DNA of 64,000 nucleotides from an uncultured Solirubrobacterales bacterium (GCA_963740685.1 CAVUGA010000017.1:4627-68626); one strand, 5' to 3'; shown: positions 28,496 through 40,013, counted from the stretch's first letter. Numbers and translations are program-made. The notes: generated from the sequence alone by a model not told the origin.

Positions 28496-29451
28496 ATGCG
28501 GAGGAAGCGACGCAGCGTCAGGCCGCTGCCCATCGCCGAAACGCCCATGGCCACGCACAGCAGGACGAGCGCGAGGTTGGCGAAGCCGATCGTGTGCCCC
28601 GAATTGATCAAGTTGAAGTTGTTGGCCAGCGGATCCACGATCACCTGCTTACCGACGAACAGGAAGCCTATTGCGATCCCTGCGCCGACCAGGCCGCAGA
28701 CGAGCCCTTCCACCATGAAGGGCCAGCGGATGAACCAGTTGGTGGCTCCGACCAGGCGCATCACCTCGACCTCGCGCCGGCGCGCGTAGATGGAGAGCCG
28801 GATCGTGTTGGCGACGAGGAGCAGCGAGGCGACCAGCAGCAGCGCCGCTACCACGCCGAGCACCCAGCGGATCGCGGTGGTGGCGCCGCTGATCTTGCTG
28901 GCGTCGTCGCGCGAGTCGCCGATGTCGCTGATCAGCGGGCTGATCGGCGCCGGGGTCCCGTTGGGCCCGGGCGGGGTGATGGCAGCCCGAACACTCGGCA
29001 GGTTGGAGAGGTCATCCGGCGCGACGCTGAACGACGCGGGCAGTGGATTGTGCGAGCCCGGCAGCTGGGCCGTGATGTCCTGGCGGTTCTCCTGCTTGAG
29101 GCGCGAGCTGAGGATCTGGATCGCCTGGTCCTTGGAGACGAACTGGACCGACTTCACGTGCGGGATGGCCTCGAGCCTGGCCTGCAGGGCCTGGACCTGA
29201 TTCGCGGGAGCCTGCTCTCCGGCCCCACCGGACACCGGTGCTCCGGTGCTGTTCACGTCGTTGAGGAAGACGCGCAGGCCGACCTGATCGCGCACCTCGT
29301 TGGTCTTGCCGTTGGTCGTCTGCAGCACAGGGATCAGCACGCCGAGGAGCAGCACGGTGATGCAGACCGTGACGATCGCCGCCAGGCTGGGGGCCGCGCT
29401 GCGGCGCAGCGCGCGCATCCCTTCGCCGATGAAGAAGAAGACTCGCCCCAT
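28492..29451 (-). CDS. ftsX: cell-division ABC transporter permease-like protein FtsX
   Basis: Typical FtsX N-terminus (GEGMRALRRSAAPSLAAIVTV), extracytoplasmic domain and 3 C-terminal TM helices. Confidence 0.9.
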   Translation of the reverse strand: MGRVFFFIGEGMRALRRSAAPSLAAIVTVCITVLLLGVLIPVLQTTNGKTNEVRDQVGLRVFLNDVNSTGAPVSGGAGEQAPANQVQALQARLEAIPHVKSVQFVSKDQAIQILSSRLKQENRQDITAQLPGSHNPLPASFSVAPDDLSNLPSVRAAITPPGPNGTPAPISPLISDIGDSRDDASKISGATTAIRWVLGVVAALLLVASLLLVANTIRLSIYARRREVEVMRLVGATNWFIRWPFMVEGLVCGLVGAGIAIGFLFVGKQVIVDPLANNFNLINSGHTIGFANLALVLLCVAMGVSAMGSGLTLRRFLRI

Positions 29452-33100: not shown

Positions 33101-34120
33101 CTAGGAAAGAGGCCCGCCCTGGATGGGCGGGTGCTGCACGATCGGCTTCTTCAGCAGCGCCTCGCGGGCCAGGTCGGCGATGCCGCTGGCGGTGAGGCCG
33201 AAGTGCTCCATGCAGGCCTCGGCGGTTCCGGAGACCCCGAACTCGTCCTGCATGCCCAGCGCGAAGACCGGGACCGGATGCTGCTCCGCGGCCACCTGCC
33301 GGATCGCGTCGCCGAGGCCGCCGACGACGCGGTGCTCCTCGGCGGTGACGGCCAAGCCGGTCTTCGCGAGGGAACGCAGCACGCTCTGCGAGTCGATCGG
33401 CTTGATGATCGAGACGTTGACCACCTCGGCCTCCACCCCGTCCTCCCGCTCGAGGGTATCGGCCGCCTCCAAACCACGCCAGACCATGTGGCCGCAGACG
33501 AAGATCGAGATGTCCTTGCCCTCCCGCAGCACGTCGACGCCGGCGCCGAGCGTGTCGGGGATCTCGTTGTAGACCATCGGCGTCTTGGGCCGCCCGAAGC
33601 GCATGTAGAGCGGGCCGTCGAAGCGCTCGTAGGACTCGATCACCGCCGCGTAGGCCTGGTTGTAGTCGGCGGGAACGATCACCTGCATCCTGGGCATCGC
33701 CCGCATCAGCGCGAGGTCCTCGATCATCTGGTGCGAGGCGCCGTCCTCGCCAAGGGAGACGCCGCCATGCGAGGCGCCGATCCGGACCTTGAGGCCGTTG
33801 TGTGCGATGCCGAGGCGCACCTGGTCATAGGAGCGGGAGGTCGCGAAGATCGCGAAGGTCGATGCGTACGGAACCTTGCCCGATGCGGCGAGGCCGCACG
33901 AGATCGACATCATGTTCGCCTCGGCCGCGCCGATGTTGAAGAACCGCTCGGGGAACTGCTTACCGAACTTCATCGACTGAGTGGAGACCGCCAGGTCGGC
34001 GTCGAGGGCGACGACCTCCGGGTAGCTCTCCCCGAGCGCGACCAGGGCATCGCCATATGCCTGCCGGGTCGCGATCGATTCCGTCTGGGGCTCCGCGGCC
34101 TCGATCAGCTCGCTCGTCAT
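33101..34120 (-). CDS. transketolase, C-terminal (pyrimidine-binding) subunit
   Basis: FFNIGAAEANMMSISCGLA.., HGGVSLGEDGASHQ. 4-nt overlap with the N-terminal subunit gene. Confidence 0.9.
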   Translation of the reverse strand: MTSELIEAAEPQTESIATRQAYGDALVALGESYPEVVALDADLAVSTQSMKFGKQFPERFFNIGAAEANMMSISCGLAASGKVPYASTFAIFATSRSYDQVRLGIAHNGLKVRIGASHGGVSLGEDGASHQMIEDLALMRAMPRMQVIVPADYNQAYAAVIESYERFDGPLYMRFGRPKTPMVYNEIPDTLGAGVDVLREGKDISIFVCGHMVWRGLEAADTLEREDGVEAEVVNVSIIKPIDSQSVLRSLAKTGLAVTAEEHRVVGGLGDAIRQVAAEQHPVPVFALGMQDEFGVSGTAEACMEHFGLTASGIADLAREALLKKPIVQHPPIQGGPLS

Positions 34121-35037: not shown

Positions 35038-35185
35038 CGGCGGCTCAGCTTGCGCCTGGTCGTACGGAATGGCCTTGGGCTGCGGCTTGCTCAAGACCGG
35101 GCGGCGAGGGTAGCAGCGGGCGGCACCGGTGGGGACCCTAGATTGCCGGGCCGACGGAACCTGCGAGACACATAGCCTCTCGTCC

Positions 35186-35884
35186 ATGAAGCTCGGAGCG
35201 ATCGCGCTGGCGGCAGGGCTCGTGCTGGCGGGCTGCGGCGGGTCGGGCGGCGAGGATCGTGCGACAAGCGCCGCGGCGACAACCGCAACCAGTCCCGGGG
35301 CCCAGGGCGCCAGGGCGCAAGGCAAGCTTCCGGCGGGAGCGGTCGGACCTGTGGACACCTCCGAGGAGGCCATCGAGGGTCCCGCCGCCACGGAAGCGAG
35401 TCCCGAGGCCCCGGCGAATGGACCGAGCGCGACGGGAGAGCTGGCGGGTCCCGACAGCGCCGCCGTTGCTGCGGCGGTGCGGGATTACGTCGCCGCGCTC
35501 GACCGCCACCAGGCGGCGCGGGTCTGCGCGCTGATCGTCAGGGGCGGAGCCGATCTGGGCGACCTGCCGAGGCGGCGCGGGGGCTGCCGCTCCTCGTTGC
35601 GCGCCTCGATCGGCGTTCGCCCGGCTGGCGGCGGGCCGGCCTGGCTGCGTACGAAGGTGGTCGAGGTGAAGCCGGAGGCGCTTGGCGACGACCGGGCCAG
35701 GGCCACGACGACCGTCACCCACAGCTTCGCGGACCGCGCCTACGTCTCCGTCGAGGACGACGTGATCTACCTGGAGAGGGTGGGCGGCCGCTGGCTGCTC
35801 GCGAAGCCCAGCGCGACTCTCTACCGAGCGGTCGGCTACGCCCAGCCCCCGCTGCGGGCGTTCGCGCCTCCCGCCGGCTGGTGA
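35186..35884 (+). CDS. lipoprotein, function unknown
   Basis: MKLGAIALAAGLVLAGCGG lipobox, low-complexity linker, then a roughly 130-aa domain. Confidence 0.6.
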   Translation: MKLGAIALAAGLVLAGCGGSGGEDRATSAAATTATSPGAQGARAQGKLPAGAVGPVDTSEEAIEGPAATEASPEAPANGPSATGELAGPDSAAVAAAVRDYVAALDRHQAARVCALIVRGGADLGDLPRRRGGCRSSLRASIGVRPAGGGPAWLRTKVVEVKPEALGDDRARATTTVTHSFADRAYVSVEDDVIYLERVGGRWLLAKPSATLYRAVGYAQPPLRAFAPPAGW

Positions 35885-35908: not shown

Positions 35909-37393
35909 CTAGAAGCGGTGGTTGCCCCCGCCGCGCGGGCCGCGCTCGCGCAGGCGCTTCGGATGCTTGCGGCTCACTCCGACGATGGAGGCCTTCGGGT
36001 CGCTCGCGCTCGGGTGGAGGACGGTCACGTAGGCGAGCGAGCCGGTCAGCGCGTCCGACCAGAGCACGCCGGCCGCTCGCTTCAACGTGAACAGGACGCG
36101 GCCCGCGCCGTGCCGGTGGCGACCGCGGACCATCAGCCTGCTGCGCCGGGCATCGCTCCGTACATAGGCGAATGAGTGGCCCTGGACGGCTGGATCGAAG
36201 AGAAGCAGCCTGCGCGAGCGGACCAGCGTCCGGTGCTTGTGGGTGCCCATCATCCACTGAACCACTCGGCTGCCCCGCGGCGTCGCGATCGCATAGAGCA
36301 GCACCCTTCCGTCGACGGCGGGCGGGCTGAGCTGGGAGGCGCCACCCTCGCTCGCCAGCAGAAATGGCGGCGCCGGTGACGCGGGGTTGGCGATGTAGCG
36401 GATGTAGATCCCGTCGCCCCCGCCGGCCGGAGCCCTGTAGGCGAGCCATGAGTCCGAGACCGCGATCGCATCGGCGCCGGGGGCGGCAACCTTCGCGATC
36501 GGCCTGAGCGTGTTTCGGTCCAGAAGGAGCACGGAGTTGTCGCCAACCGTGGCCACGAAGCGCCCTCCGATCGCAGGGTGCTTGCCGAGCAGAGCCACCT
36601 CCGGACCGCCGCGACTGATCACCGCCGGGCCGCCGAGCCTCTGGAAGAGGAGGGCATCGGCCGTGGCCGCCGGGTCGGTGGCGCTCGGGACGTTGGTGCC
36701 GGCGGCTCCGGCGCTGCCGGGGGCGACGATCAGCGCGACCGCGGAGACCAGCAGGGCGGCGGCGTCGCCGCGACGCAGTCCCAGGTAGACGCCGTCCCGC
36801 TCGCACATCAGCTCGGTCGCGCGGATGCCCGTCGCGCTGCCCGCCAGCGGGGCGAGAACGACGATCGGGATCGCCCGCCCGATCCCGAAGGCGGCACCCA
36901 GCAGCAGTCCGAGCGCGGGGTCGCCGATCGCCAGGCTGACGCCCGCCAGGGCCCAGACGCCGAAGGAGAGGACGAAGGTGGTGAACCCGACCCCGAGCAG
37001 GACTCCATACAGGGCCGCAGCAACCGGCATCGGCATCACCCGCCGCCAATGCTCTGGGAGCTGGCGGCGGATCTGCGGCACGATCCTGGTTCCCCGGACC
37101 TCCAGCGCGGCGGCCAGCAGGGCGATCGCGGCCGCCACGACGTATGCCGCCCGGCCACCGGCACCGTGGAGGAGCTGTCCGAGCCAGGCGAGCGAGCCGA
37201 AGGTGAGCAGGCCTCCGGCGATCGCGCCCGGCAGGAAGGTCGCGCAGGCGGCCGCCGTGATGCGCCAGCCCCCGGTGTGGCCCGTGGGCCCGATCGTGTC
37301 GATCGCCGAGAGCCCGCAGGGGGAGAAGGTCCCGGTTGCGCCGATCAGCAGAGCCGCTGCGGCGAGCGCGATCTCCACAGCGCCGCTGATCAT
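35909..37393 (-). CDS. MauF/DsbD_2-like polytopic membrane domain fused to an extracytoplasmic beta-propeller-like domain
   Basis: TM1 with FSPCGLS, about 6 TM helices. C-terminal roughly 255 aa have TolB/propeller-like repeats (VLLLD, WLAYR, VLLYA, FAYVR, LAYVT). Basic tail. ATG overlaps the upstream stop (TGATG). Confidence 0.6.
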   Translation of the reverse strand: MISGAVEIALAAAALLIGATGTFSPCGLSAIDTIGPTGHTGGWRITAAACATFLPGAIAGGLLTFGSLAWLGQLLHGAGGRAAYVVAAAIALLAAALEVRGTRIVPQIRRQLPEHWRRVMPMPVAAALYGVLLGVGFTTFVLSFGVWALAGVSLAIGDPALGLLLGAAFGIGRAIPIVVLAPLAGSATGIRATELMCERDGVYLGLRRGDAAALLVSAVALIVAPGSAGAAGTNVPSATDPAATADALLFQRLGGPAVISRGGPEVALLGKHPAIGGRFVATVGDNSVLLLDRNTLRPIAKVAAPGADAIAVSDSWLAYRAPAGGGDGIYIRYIANPASPAPPFLLASEGGASQLSPPAVDGRVLLYAIATPRGSRVVQWMMGTHKHRTLVRSRRLLLFDPAVQGHSFAYVRSDARRSRLMVRGRHRHGAGRVLFTLKRAAGVLWSDALTGSLAYVTVLHPSASDPKASIVGVSRKHPKRLRERGPRGGGNHRF

Positions 37394-37968
37394 CAGCAGG
37401 GGACCTTGGTGTCGTAGTACTGGACGCAGAACACCTTGCGGCCCCGGTAGCAGTAGCCGGTGAGCGCGGCGTCGCCGTTGATCCGCGTGTTGTGGTGCGC
37501 GCAGCAGTCACGAAGCTGCCGCACCTTGCCGCCGCAACAGCGGTACCACGAGCCGTCGTTGTGGGGCTTGAAGCCGTAGATGTCCCCGGCGCGATCGCAG
37601 AGCCGGGTGCGGGGGGCCGGCGGCAGGGGCCGGCCCTCGGCGTCGCGCAGGAGCTCTCCGCCGCCATCAACCGGTTGCCCGGCGTCGTTGACGGGCCGGC
37701 CGATGTCGTCGATCGCCTGCCCGTCGCTCGCCCGCAGGGGAAAGCCGCGCGAGTCGATGCGGGGCAGCCCGGTCGGGTGCGGGCAGGAGCCGGTCGTGAA
37801 GGTATGGCCGCAGAAGTGGAAGGCCTCGGAGTCGCCGGGCTCGATCAGCGTGCCGACGGTCCGGGCCGCGGTGAGGGCGACCAGCGCCCCTCCCACCCGC
37901 GCGAGGAAGCCGCGCCGCGAGGTGTCCCGCGCCAGCGAATCCGTGATCCGGTCGAGGTGCTCAGGCAC
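37393..37968 (-). CDS. Tat-exported Cys-rich protein resembling methylamine dehydrogenase light chain (MauA-like)
   Basis: Twin-arginine signal SRRGFLARVGGALVALTAA, 10 Cys, GSWYRCC..LRDCC..VFC blocks. GTG 37968 overlaps the upstream stop by 8 nt. Confidence 0.65.
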   Translation of the reverse strand: MPEHLDRITDSLARDTSRRGFLARVGGALVALTAARTVGTLIEPGDSEAFHFCGHTFTTGSCPHPTGLPRIDSRGFPLRASDGQAIDDIGRPVNDAGQPVDGGGELLRDAEGRPLPPAPRTRLCDRAGDIYGFKPHNDGSWYRCCGGKVRQLRDCCAHHNTRINGDAALTGYCYRGRKVFCVQYYDTKVPC

Positions 37969-38830
37969 GACGGCGCTCGGCCGTGGCCAGGACGCTCTCG
38001 AGCTGGGCCAGGTTGTTGAACGTCCCCTTCGCCAGGACGGTGCCCCGGTCGTCCAGCGCGATCGCATAGGGGCTCCCGGGAATCCCGAGGTCGCGCCACA
38101 GCCCCGCGTCCGCCACCTCGTCGAAGACGCCGACCGCGACATCCGGATCGTTGCCGACGTTCTCGATCGCAGGCGACAGCGTCTGGCAGAGGCGGCAGCC
38201 CTCGGAGCTGAAGACGGCGAGCCCCAGCCTCTCGGTGCTCGCTGCGAGCCGCGCGGCGAGGGCGTCGGAGCGCGAACCGACCTCGGGGCCCTCACCGGCG
38301 ATCTCCAGAGCCCCCTGCGTCCCGAGCCGGAGCCGCAGCATGCCGACCTCGCGGGCGAGCGCCAGCACCGCAACGGCCAGCCCGGCGCACGCGAGCAGGG
38401 CCACGCCGACGGCGATCCCGAGCCAGGCCTCCGTGCCGAGCGCGATCTCCTCGACCAGCGGGATCAGCGCAAAGCCCGCTGCCAGCCCGAGGTTGCGAAG
38501 CACACCGAGCCAGGAGACCTTGGAGCGGGGCCCGAAGCAGGCGCACGGGCTCCCGGCGCGCCCGCGGAGGATCGCCCCGGTGGTGAGGGCGCCGAACAGC
38601 AGCATCAGCCCGGCGGCGGCGTAGGCCGCTGTGTCGGAGCCGAGCACGACCGCAACGGCGAGGGCCAGCTCGATTGCGATCATCCCCGCCCAGGCGAGGG
38701 GCCTGACAGGCCCACCGGCGAAGCCGAAGCTGTCCATCGAGGCGATGCTGGCGCGCGGCGAGGCGAGCTTCGCGAGCGCGGCGCCCGCCAGCACGATGCC
38801 AAGCCCGACCCGGAGAGCTGTCTCCACCAT
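37961..38830 (-). CDS. MauE/DoxX-type membrane protein fused to a MauD/TlpA-like thioredoxin domain
   Basis: 4-5 TM helices with the SPCACFG motif. C-terminal domain with SEGCRLCQ (CxxC) and a thioredoxin-like tail. Confidence 0.75.
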   Translation of the reverse strand: MVETALRVGLGIVLAGAALAKLASPRASIASMDSFGFAGGPVRPLAWAGMIAIELALAVAVVLGSDTAAYAAAGLMLLFGALTTGAILRGRAGSPCACFGPRSKVSWLGVLRNLGLAAGFALIPLVEEIALGTEAWLGIAVGVALLACAGLAVAVLALAREVGMLRLRLGTQGALEIAGEGPEVGSRSDALAARLAASTERLGLAVFSSEGCRLCQTLSPAIENVGNDPDVAVGVFDEVADAGLWRDLGIPGSPYAIALDDRGTVLAKGTFNNLAQLESVLATAERRRA

Positions 38831-38876: not shown

Positions 38877-40013
38877 TCACGCCTGGGCGCGCGCCTTGGA
38901 CCTGACCCGCTTGATGCAGCGCCGCCGCTTCTTCTTCTTGCGGATGCGCTTGCACTTCTTCATCGCCTTTCTCGAGTTGAATGACCTGGTGGTCACCCCC
39001 GGCGGAGTGGAGCCCAGCGGCGGAGCGGAGCCCAGCGGCAGCCCGCCGCCGCCGAAGATCCCCTCGGCGGGCAGGCCGTAGGTGGACTCGAGACTGGAGA
39101 CGTCCGACTCGATCAGCGAGCGCATGGTCGGGCCCGCCACCCGCGTGTAGACGCCGGGGAATCCCGCCTCGGCGCAGCCCTCACCCCAGCCCGTGATCCC
39201 GACCAGCCGGTAGCCACCGCCCTCGAGCGGGGCCTCGAGGGGGCCGCCGCTGTCTCCGGAGCAGGTGTCCACCCCGCCGCTCGGGAACCCGGCGCAGACC
39301 ATGGTGGCCGAGTCGAAGTCGCTCCCGTAGTCGCCGCTGCAGGTCGAGTCCGCGATCACGGCCACCGTCGCCACCCGGAGCGTGTCCACCGTGTCGGCGA
39401 GCGGAGATTCGCTGGTCGTGCCCCAGCCGCTGACGTCGACCGGGCTGTCCGCATCCCAGAGCGCGCCCTCGTCCGTGCCGGCGATCTTGATCGGGGTCTG
39501 GCTCGACGCCGACGACAGGACGAGGTATGCGACGTCGAATCTGGGCACGCCGTCGCCCTGGAAGTTGCCGTTGTAGTTAGCCCGGAGCTTCACTGCCTGC
39601 ACGCCGACCTCCGCCCCCTGGCTGGTATCGGACAGGGTTGTGCGCCCGAGGACCACGTCGAGATCGTTCGCATCGAGCTGGACGGTCTTGTCACCGCCCG
39701 GGTCGTTGAGCACGCAGAGGGCATTCGTCGCGCAATCCGGGTCCCCGTCGGCAATGCAGTGGCCGGCCGTGACGACGATCCGCGACGTGAGCAGCGATCC
39801 TCCGCAGAACTGGCGCTGATGGGCGTTACCCGACAGTTTTGACGGAGAGATGACGACCGCCGCCTGCCATGGGTACTGCGAGATCGATGTCGTCGACCCG
39901 CCGACGATCTTCGGCTGAACCGACCCTCCCTTCTGGGCGTTCGCCGTGGCGGACCCCAGCAGCGTCAGAGCCGCGAGCGCGCAGAGCGGGACGAGTCGAA
40001 ACCGCCTCCCCAT
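38877..40013 (-). CDS. secreted trypsin-like S1 serine protease with polybasic C-terminal tail
   Basis: Signal peptide, IVGG, TAGHC, GDSGGPL. Tail KKCKRIRKKKKRRRCIKRVRSKARAQA. Confidence 0.85.
   Translation of the reverse strand: MGRRFRLVPLCALAALTLLGSATANAQKGGSVQPKIVGGSTTSISQYPWQAAVVISPSKLSGNAHQRQFCGGSLLTSRIVVTAGHCIADGDPDCATNALCVLNDPGGDKTVQLDANDLDVVLGRTTLSDTSQGAEVGVQAVKLRANYNGNFQGDGVPRFDVAYLVLSSASSQTPIKIAGTDEGALWDADSPVDVSGWGTTSESPLADTVDTLRVATVAVIADSTCSGDYGSDFDSATMVCAGFPSGGVDTCSGDSGGPLEAPLEGGGYRLVGITGWGEGCAEAGFPGVYTRVAGPTMRSLIESDVSSLESTYGLPAEGIFGGGGLPLGSAPPLGSTPPGVTTRSFNSRKAMKKCKRIRKKKKRRRCIKRVRSKARAQA

Follow-up and report, generated by a model that had tools for sequence, protein, structure and literature searches.

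The proteins MauE, MauD and MauF are known from the mau cluster for methylamine utilization, for which the Paracoccus cluster (L083), with the order MauF, B, E, D, A, amicyanin, J, G, M, N, is the canonical reference used here, and they have previously been defined only as helpers of methylamine dehydrogenase (MADH). A wider role has been proposed for MauE, as MauE proteins complement Escherichia coli dsbB and may be generalist disulfide-forming, DsbB-like proteins with a CXC motif followed by Phe-Gly in the loop between transmembrane helices (TM) 3 and 4 and, likewise conserved, a Lys on TM1 and a Glu on TM2; MauA is present in only about 10% of the MauE-bearing species, and thioredoxin fusions make up 8.2% of the InterPro MauE entries (bioRxiv preprint of 2026, 10.64898/2026.03.05.709764). 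In Streptomyces, mauE (and mauD) are found beside precursors with at least 8 Cys in candidate clusters resembling those for peptides made on the ribosome and modified after translation (RiPPs; decRiPPter), which possess no other mau genes (PMC7794033). Here, a locus of three minus-strand genes is described at positions 35909-38830 of a stretch of 64,000 nucleotides (the window) from an uncultured Solirubrobacterales bacterium (GCA_963740685.1, CAVUGA010000017.1:4627-68626), in which homologues of MauE, MauD and MauF accompany a wholly different putative client.

The three genes probably constitute one operon that encodes a self-contained, client-dedicated Mau-type oxidative-folding system acting at the outer face of the membrane, and not a methylamine system, a reading to which a probability of about 0.6 is assigned. 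The catalytic residues of gene 1, a MauE-MauD fusion, match those reported for the dsbB-complementing MauE proteins, and gene 2 is a plausible client with a twin-arginine translocation (Tat) leader and 10 conserved Cys, its translation being coupled to that of its neighbours by overlaps of 8 and 1 nucleotides; the canonical mau clusters fetched likewise all keep mauE-mauD directly upstream of the gene for the Cys-rich client MauA. The overlap of genes 1 and 2 reads GTGCCTGA (longer junction stretch CGTCGTGCCTGA), with the GTG start codon of gene 2 lying inside the last 8 nucleotides of gene 1, and genes 2 and 3 overlap in TGATG (longer junction stretch CCCTGCTGATGATC), where the ATG of gene 3 shares one nucleotide with the TGA of gene 2. 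Open reading frames (ORFs) and junctions bear out the layout of three minus-strand genes with these two overlaps that an earlier note on this DNA had described, including its statement that parts of the mau toolkit are recombined in a non-canonical way, as genuine MauE, MauD and MauF homologues surround an exported Cys-rich protein. Promoter, terminator and Rfam scans of the locus gave no match.

The trio is conserved far beyond the window, which has a G+C content of about 69% and whose nearest relatives are metagenome-assembled genomes labelled Solirubrobacterales or Thermoleophilia, with an identity of gene 2 of up to 97%. Two sets of related loci, 81 from genomes and 81 from metagenomes, were surveyed, the searches covering the window and flanks of 8-10 kb on either side. 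In the genome set, all 81 loci show genes 1, 2 and 3 in one and the same succession, and the neighbourhood with NadA, Fpg, a split transketolase and a convergent lipoprotein-like ORF is syntenic as well. The complete Thermoleophilia genome OY970203.1 bears the trio at locus L066. In a divergent metagenomic clade, reached via P0245/L084 and a metagenome scan, gene 2 has an identity of 45-62% and the backbone genes are missing from the flanks. Gene 1 lies upstream of gene 2 in 78 of the 81 metagenomic loci, with a gene 3 homologue downstream, and all 48 divergent loci with enough downstream sequence have the propeller-like domain of gene 3 next to gene 2, in 43 cases as a fusion with the MauF-like domain and in five as the propeller only. 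Other gene families are each shared by at most 5 of 26 long loci from the divergent clade. Because the trio persists amid unrelated flanks and no fourth recurrent family accompanies it, the constant core consists of the MauE-thioredoxin fusion, the 10-Cys Tat protein and the propeller, with the MauF-like domain as a frequent, facultative component.

Gene 1 is, as had been read from its SPCACFG and CRLC motifs, a MauE domain fused to a MauD/TlpA-like thioredoxin domain. Residues 4-122 match Pfam MauE (3.7e-17) and the protein is 33% identical to Paracoccus MauE (BLASTP, E 7e-7), and residues 146-281 align with Paracoccus MauD (BLASTP, 29% over 166 amino acids (aa), E 3e-14) in an alignment that takes in the membrane anchor and the CxxC motif, CRLC being aligned to the CPVC of Paracoccus MauD. 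As the NCBIfam MauD model TIGR02661 is matched with 39 bits (E 4.9e-10) against an equivalog cut-off of 188, the C-terminal half is a homologue of MauD and not an equivalog. Hydropathy displays the four TM helices of MauE and a fifth helix as the anchor, which by inference sets the thioredoxin domain on the outer side of the membrane, the same as the CXC loop. At least 95% conserved among 79 homologues are K21 on TM1, E54 on TM2, the loop P95-C96-A97-C98-F99-G100 and the thioredoxin cysteines C212 and C215; judged by its sequence, gene 1 possesses every feature by which DsbB-like MauE proteins are recognized. Two homologues, P0243 (453 aa) and P0258 (429 aa), are apparent single-polypeptide fusions of a MauE domain with the 10-Cys protein; these may be real or frameshift or gene-calling artefacts of the 8-nucleotide overlap, as many entries of the representative protein library in which they occur are frameshifted translations.

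Gene 1 could alternatively be the housekeeping DsbB/DsbA equivalent of these Actinomycetota, with genes 2 and 3 as co-transcribed passengers of an unrelated envelope function and the gene 2 product as one client among many. The generalist role proposed for MauE (10.64898/2026.03.05.709764) would agree with this, as would the fact that in 81 genomes the locus lies within a conserved backbone of the core genome, with NadA, Fpg and transketolase. The Cys of trypsin-fold proteases probably form disulfides, and the neighbouring Cys-rich S1 protease would also need a disulfide system. We nevertheless consider this explanation unlikely: the trio with its start/stop overlaps persists amid an entirely different backbone, canonical MauE and MauD are likewise encoded beside a specific client, and gene 1 never occurs without gene 2 in 162 loci, an argument circular in part, as gene 2 had served to find these loci.

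Gene 2 encodes a protein of 191 aa with a twin-arginine signal and exactly 10 Cys, as the earlier note had it. In the leader, T-S-R-R-G-F-L-A-R is followed by VGGALVALTAA and S-E-A; R18 is invariant, with R-K in a few divergent members. With a twin-arginine motif of the S/T-R-R-x-F-L-K type, the h-region and the AxA-type site of a Tat substrate all present, the protein is predicted to be exported by this route. All ten Cys (C53, C62, C124, C144, C145, C155, C156, C173, C181 and C191) are at least 95% conserved in an alignment of 162 homologues, as are F52-C-G-H55, T58-T59, W141, R143, D154, R162, N164-G-D166 and Y172. The family comprises 2431 homologues, none of which has a Pfam domain or a functional name, and relatives occur in at least 527 species-level genomes. 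The middle region (residues ~67-138) is the best-modelled part, with a predicted local distance difference test score (pLDDT) of 78-92 and a run of short beta-hairpins, and repeats the motif D-G-x-P-[VI]-D-x-x-G; no structural match to it was found, and sequence matches to huge eukaryotic proteins (P0307, P0359) were discarded as low-complexity repeats (for example, DUF3659 and Plectin). A Rieske-like C-x-H...C-x-H metal site was also rejected, because H64 is not conserved in the divergent members.

In gene 3 (494 aa), a MauF-like polytopic membrane domain is joined to a repeat-built beta domain. Residues 18-183 are 31% identical to Paracoccus MauF over 175 aa (BLASTP, E 3e-8), and a 79-sequence alignment of gene 3 matches a MauF alignment over residues 7-218 with 98.5% probability (hhalign, E 2.7e-15); although this MauF alignment wrongly took in a cytochrome-c-like protein from locus L088, the homology stands on the pairwise comparison as well. 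Gene 3 and MauF have the motifs S-P-C-G, P-Q-x-R-x-Q-[LV]-P, L-Y-G-x-x-L-G and G-R-x-x-P in common, and tblastn with MauF finds matches in 72 related loci (best E 9e-18). The MauF homology and the FSPCGLS motif of the earlier note are therefore upheld; its DsbD_2 label is unsupported since neither Pfam nor NCBIfam recognizes gene 3, DsbD and DsbD_2 being missing even at E <= 10. MauF itself is assigned to no Pfam family.

The C-terminal domain of about 260 residues consists of repeats of about 45 aa, which were found by segment-against-segment hhalign (residues 345-395 versus 390-435, 95.9% probability, E 5.5e-9), with a blade-like motif P-x-[VL]-x-G-x-x-[LF]-A-[YF]. The AlphaFold2 model of gene 3 has a pLDDT of 54, and its C-terminal domain is all-beta with a pLDDT below 50; the top Foldseek matches of this low-confidence part are the propellers Hsv2, NirN, YncE and BamB, all weak (E ~0.03), and no match to Pfam PD40 or another propeller profile was obtained. 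Beta-propellers close a ring of 4-8 repeated four-stranded blades; the domain is probably one of five to six blades, with the blade number uncertain. The designation of these residues (about 255 in the earlier note) as propeller-like is thus plausible with respect to the repeats and the all-beta model, with structural matches that are weak. That the propeller replaces the catalytic partner as a MauB substitute, as had been put forward, is not supported, as hhalign gives a probability of 0.7% against a 5-sequence alignment of MauB, which is a 7-bladed propeller (PF06433), and BLAST no similarity to Paracoccus MauB. In five metagenomic loci (L098, L102, L106, L110 and L117) the propeller stands alone as a protein that begins with a signal peptide, from which the domain is predicted to lie outside the cytoplasm; the version at L110:8612-9415 (267 aa) and the homologue of L084 share 30% identity across 245 aa (E 2e-23). 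These five loci have a very high G+C content, and their third gene, without the MauF-like domain, is gene 3 in a naturally split form.

The membrane-embedded Cys motifs of CcdA and DsbD resemble S-P-C-G, and the conservation of this motif in gene 3 and MauF raises the possibility that the module works reductively, with the MauE and MauF-like domains carrying reducing equivalents outward in the way of DsbD/CcdA and the thioredoxin domain keeping some of the gene 2 Cys reduced for a metal or cofactor, or isomerizing disulfides. Such a direction would agree with the Tat export of gene 2, a route often taken by cofactor proteins, with the invariant F-C-G-H55, and with a report of MauE as a possible reductase cited in the MauE preprint (10.64898/2026.03.05.709764). 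It appears very improbable, as the CXC-F-G site is also that of MauE proteins able to complement dsbB, an oxidase function, and gene 2 has vicinal CC pairs but no CxxC or Fe-S-type spacing, as is typical of disulfide-rich proteins, with H64 variable as stated above. Furthermore, gene 3 matches no DsbD_2/CcdA profile and its membrane domain has a single universally conserved Cys where CcdA/DsbD requires two: a divergent homologue keeps C26 of S-P-C-G, and C50 and C197 are not conserved. Gene 3 as a DsbD_2/CcdA thiol-disulfide transporter is not supported.

The remaining mau genes are missing from the trio's surroundings. Queries with Paracoccus MauA, MauB, amicyanin, MauJ, MauG, MauM and MauN found nothing by tblastn at E <= 0.01 in the window and 83 Thermoleophilia loci, nor at E <= 1e-4 in the 81 metagenomic loci, and window ORFs of 100 aa or more contain just one CxxCH motif, at 28652-29011. 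The absence of MauB, MauG and amicyanin from the 64-kb window thus agrees with what the earlier note saw, and extends to the 164 related loci searched. On the other hand, its claim that gene 2 shares the blocks FxxCGH, CPxPTG, SW..C and RDCC with MADH light chains was not confirmed. S-W and R-D-C-C do occur in both proteins, with a colinear Cys alignment by eye that is statistically unsupported, and FxxCGH is not a MauA motif, MauA having YWRHC.

Of the profile hits expected at that time, MauE is found in gene 1, and gene 2 gives no Pfam or NCBIfam match, including Me-amine-dh_L (PF02975), just as gene 3 lacks DsbD_2. No light chain of MADH or aromatic amine dehydrogenase (AADH) was retrieved by PDB phmmer or by profile searches with three alignments of gene 2, and the structure prediction suggested for the MauA-like protein alone did not reveal one either: with the AlphaFold2 model (pLDDT 61), Foldseek against PDB has no MADH/AADH light chain among the best 50 matches listed, and not one match to any structure at E <= 0.001. 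In hhalign against a 20-sequence MauA alignment, the leader alone aligns (96% probability, E 3e-9), and as most of this match comes from the RR core and the h-region, with a weak pre-RR segment (53% probability), it is not counted as proof of common ancestry. In both leaders the twin arginines are preceded by an unusually long stretch, about 15-20 residues, in which acidic residues, Leu and Ala follow a weakly similar pattern; this could be a common recognition element for Mau helpers. The mature parts were compared with gene 2 alignments of 24, 86 and 162 sequences, with and without the insert at 66-135 and each with column-shuffle nulls; the local scores of 15-19 stand against 13-14 +/- 3 for the nulls, with shuffles equalling the observed score in 7/150, 10/120, 17/80 and 14/80 runs, and the best local alignment, DGSWYRCCGGKV versus IDGxxCxCxGG, is another than the one proposed before. 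MauA is characterized by 12 Cys and the two tryptophans of its Trp-Trp quinone (TTQ), while gene 2 has 10 Cys and one universally conserved Trp, W141, which excludes TTQ; a quinone cofactor in gene 2 is unsupported. As the mature domain is unlike MauA in all tests and only the Tat leader aligns, gene 2 is not supported as a relative of the MADH light chain.

It is accordingly very improbable that gene 2 encodes a quinoprotein small subunit of the MauA type that has diverged very far, for example with a Cys-Trp quinone on W141, and that the membrane-anchored gene 3 propeller is a heavy-chain analogue in a new extracytoplasmic dehydrogenase. The position of gene 2 right behind mauE/mauD, as for mauA, would suit such an enzyme, as would the long, MauA-like Tat leader and a beta-propeller partner like that in MADH, and the invariant W141 followed by CC and the invariant D154-C-C resemble S-W and R-D-C-C of MauA. 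Apart from the negative mature-domain, profile and structure comparisons and the single Trp, this explanation faces a propeller unrelated to MauB, the absence of MauG from 165 loci (window and 164 related loci), flanks of 26 divergent loci in which no flavoprotein or radical-SAM partner recurs, and no electron acceptor (amicyanin, cytochrome) nearby. Equally improbable is a version in which gene 2 and the propeller make up a redox enzyme or receptor of a new kind that soil Thermoleophilia would use outside the cytoplasm, the small subunit being matured like MauA with a protein-derived cross-link or quinone at the invariant W141/C144-C145/D154 cluster and MauF serving as the membrane platform for the assembly of such subunits; if true, MauF would gain a role in classical MADH biogenesis.

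In the preferred model of a dedicated oxidative-folding system, the MauE domain of gene 1 would generate a disulfide de novo at the C-A-C loop, quinone taking up the electrons, with the fifth TM helix placing the CRLC thioredoxin domain outside, where it would oxidize the ten Cys of gene 2 after Tat export to up to five disulfides. The propeller of gene 3, usually tethered by the MauF-like membrane domain, would most likely bind or scaffold gene 2 during or after folding. An exported Cys-rich protein as the object of oxidative maturation is thus the best-supported part of what the earlier note had suggested and fits MauE as a DsbB-like protein, whereas its alternative of a quinone-type protein is unsupported. 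Several observations weigh against the model: any role of the MauF-like membrane domain is a guess and this domain is missing in about 10% of the divergent loci, the AlphaFold2 models of genes 2 and 3 are of low confidence, and the suggestion that MauE may be a reductase derives from an earlier study (cited in 10.64898/2026.03.05.709764).

With respect to significance, MauE fused to thioredoxin and the analogy of MauE with DsbB have been described already; the MauE/MauD/MauF set with a client other than MauA, the MauF-propeller fusion and the 10-Cys and propeller families have not been described before. As all three helpers go together with a completely different putative client in a soil lineage that is abundant and represented by at least 527 species-level genomes, E, D and F can be argued to be a portable module by which one specific Tat protein, rich in disulfides, is matured. 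What MauF does is hinted at structurally for the first time by its fusion to an extracytoplasmic propeller, one idea being a membrane docking or assembly platform beside the client. Two families, the 10-Cys protein and its propeller partner, neither of them annotated, are newly defined, and gene 1 provides a natural MauE-thioredoxin fusion as a test case for the MauE oxidative-folding pathway.

Table 1. Features of the locus and its neighbours (positions in the window).
Feature	Position	Strand	Evidence
Gene 1, 289 aa: MauE-type DsbB-like membrane domain, TM anchor, MauD-like thioredoxin domain	37961..38830	-	Pfam, BLASTP
MauE active-site loop P95-C96-A97-C98-F99-G100 (CXC-F-G)	38531..38548	-	at least 95% conserved, 79 homologues
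CxxC of the MauD-like thioredoxin domain, C212-R-L-C215	38186..38197	-	both Cys at least 95% conserved
Gene 2, whole ORF	37393..37968	-	ORF, junction reads
Gene 2 leader, residues 1-49: long Tat signal TSRRGFLARVGG, likely S-E-A cleavage site	37822..37968	-	sequence, alignment, hhalign
Gene 2 predicted mature part, residues 50-191 and stop: 10-Cys family, beta-hairpin-rich middle	37393..37821	-	homologue alignment
Gene 2 middle region	37555..37770	-	AlphaFold2
Gene 3, whole ORF	35909..37393	-	ORF, junction reads
Gene 3 N-terminal domain, residues 1-232: MauF-like, polytopic membrane, S-P-C26-G	36698..37393	-	BLASTP, hhalign, tblastn
Gene 3 C-terminal domain, residues 233-494 and stop: Cys-free, repeat-built beta domain	35909..36697	-	repeats, AlphaFold2, Foldseek
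S1/trypsin-family protease, secreted	38877..40013	-	Pfam Trypsin 1.4e-39
Convergent ORF, lipoprotein-like	35129..35884	+	
Putative split transketolase gene	34117..~35040	-	translations, Pfam labels on homologues
Putative split transketolase gene	33101..34120	-	translations, Pfam labels on homologues

Upstream of gene 1, at a distance of 46 nucleotides and not 47 as noted earlier, lies the gene for an S1 protease with an unusual, very basic and Cys-containing C-terminal tail (...KKCKRIRKKKKRRRCIKRVRSKARAQA). The protease had been considered a possible member of the operon, which was rejected: it stands between NadA and gene 1 in only 48/81 loci of the genome set and is essentially missing in the divergent clade, and is therefore regarded as a variable insertion. 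The ORF convergent on gene 3 has a lipoprotein-like start from an internal Met (MKLGAIALAAGLVLAGCGG) and no family match; as it adjoins the trio in 75/81 genome-set loci versus 1/81 metagenomic loci (L159), it looks like backbone synteny and not like a partner. Further away, two genes with a 4-nucleotide overlap look like the N- and C-terminal halves of a split transketolase, judged from the translations and the Pfam labels (Transketolase_N, Transket_pyr) on the homologues of locus L001; the mechanical ORF of the N-terminal half extends to 35391, which is probably an over-extension.

Among the known systems, the periplasmic propellers of the TolB/PD40 and YVTN types are similar to the C-terminus of gene 3 in their repeats of about 45 aa, blade-like motif and extracytoplasmic location and in the weak Foldseek matches, but differ in that gene 3 matches no propeller profile and has an uncertain blade number in a model with a pLDDT below 50. 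The decRiPPter clusters of Streptomyces (PMC7794033), compared by description only, equally place MauE/MauD of Actinomycetota beside a Cys-rich predicted substrate; they are accessory and their predicted RiPP precursors typically short, in contrast to the 191-aa Tat protein, the core-genome locus and the MauF-propeller of the trio. VKOR-thioredoxin systems (VKOR/DsbA, DsbB/DsbA) have in common with gene 1 a quinone-linked membrane disulfide generator fused to or paired with an extracytoplasmic thioredoxin-fold carrier, an analogy drawn in the MauE preprint (10.64898/2026.03.05.709764), whereas the membrane family of gene 1 is MauE and gene 1 is operon-linked to one specific Cys-rich protein. 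The MauE-thioredoxin fusions reported before share with gene 1 the four-helix MauE domain, CXC-F-G in the TM3-TM4 loop, the TM1 Lys, the TM2 Glu and the fused thioredoxin fold, but MauE is presented there as a generalist, and no MauF, dedicated Tat client or propeller partner is described (10.64898/2026.03.05.709764).

The proteobacterial mauB-E-D-A clusters themselves vary: a cytochrome-c-like gene (L088:2721-3587) occupies the usual place of mauF in one, and the listed flank of another (L089) contains neither a gene with a CCP_MauG or cupredoxin Pfam match nor a mauF candidate upstream of mauB, so that MauF is seemingly not universal even for MADH, L089 and probably L088 being without it. 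With the canonical cluster (mauFBEDACJGMN, Paracoccus/Methylobacterium) the trio shares homologues of MauE, MauD and MauF and the succession of mauE-mauD and a Cys-rich Tat protein whose leader is long and whose length is about 180-190 aa. It differs in the lack of MauA, MauB, MauG, amicyanin, MauJ, MauM and MauN in the window and 164 loci, in a putative client for whose mature domain none of the tests showed a relation to MauA, and in its architecture, as MauE and MauD are fused to each other and MauF to a propeller other than MauB; and while the canonical mau cluster belongs to Proteobacteria, the trio belongs to Thermoleophilia of the Actinomycetota.

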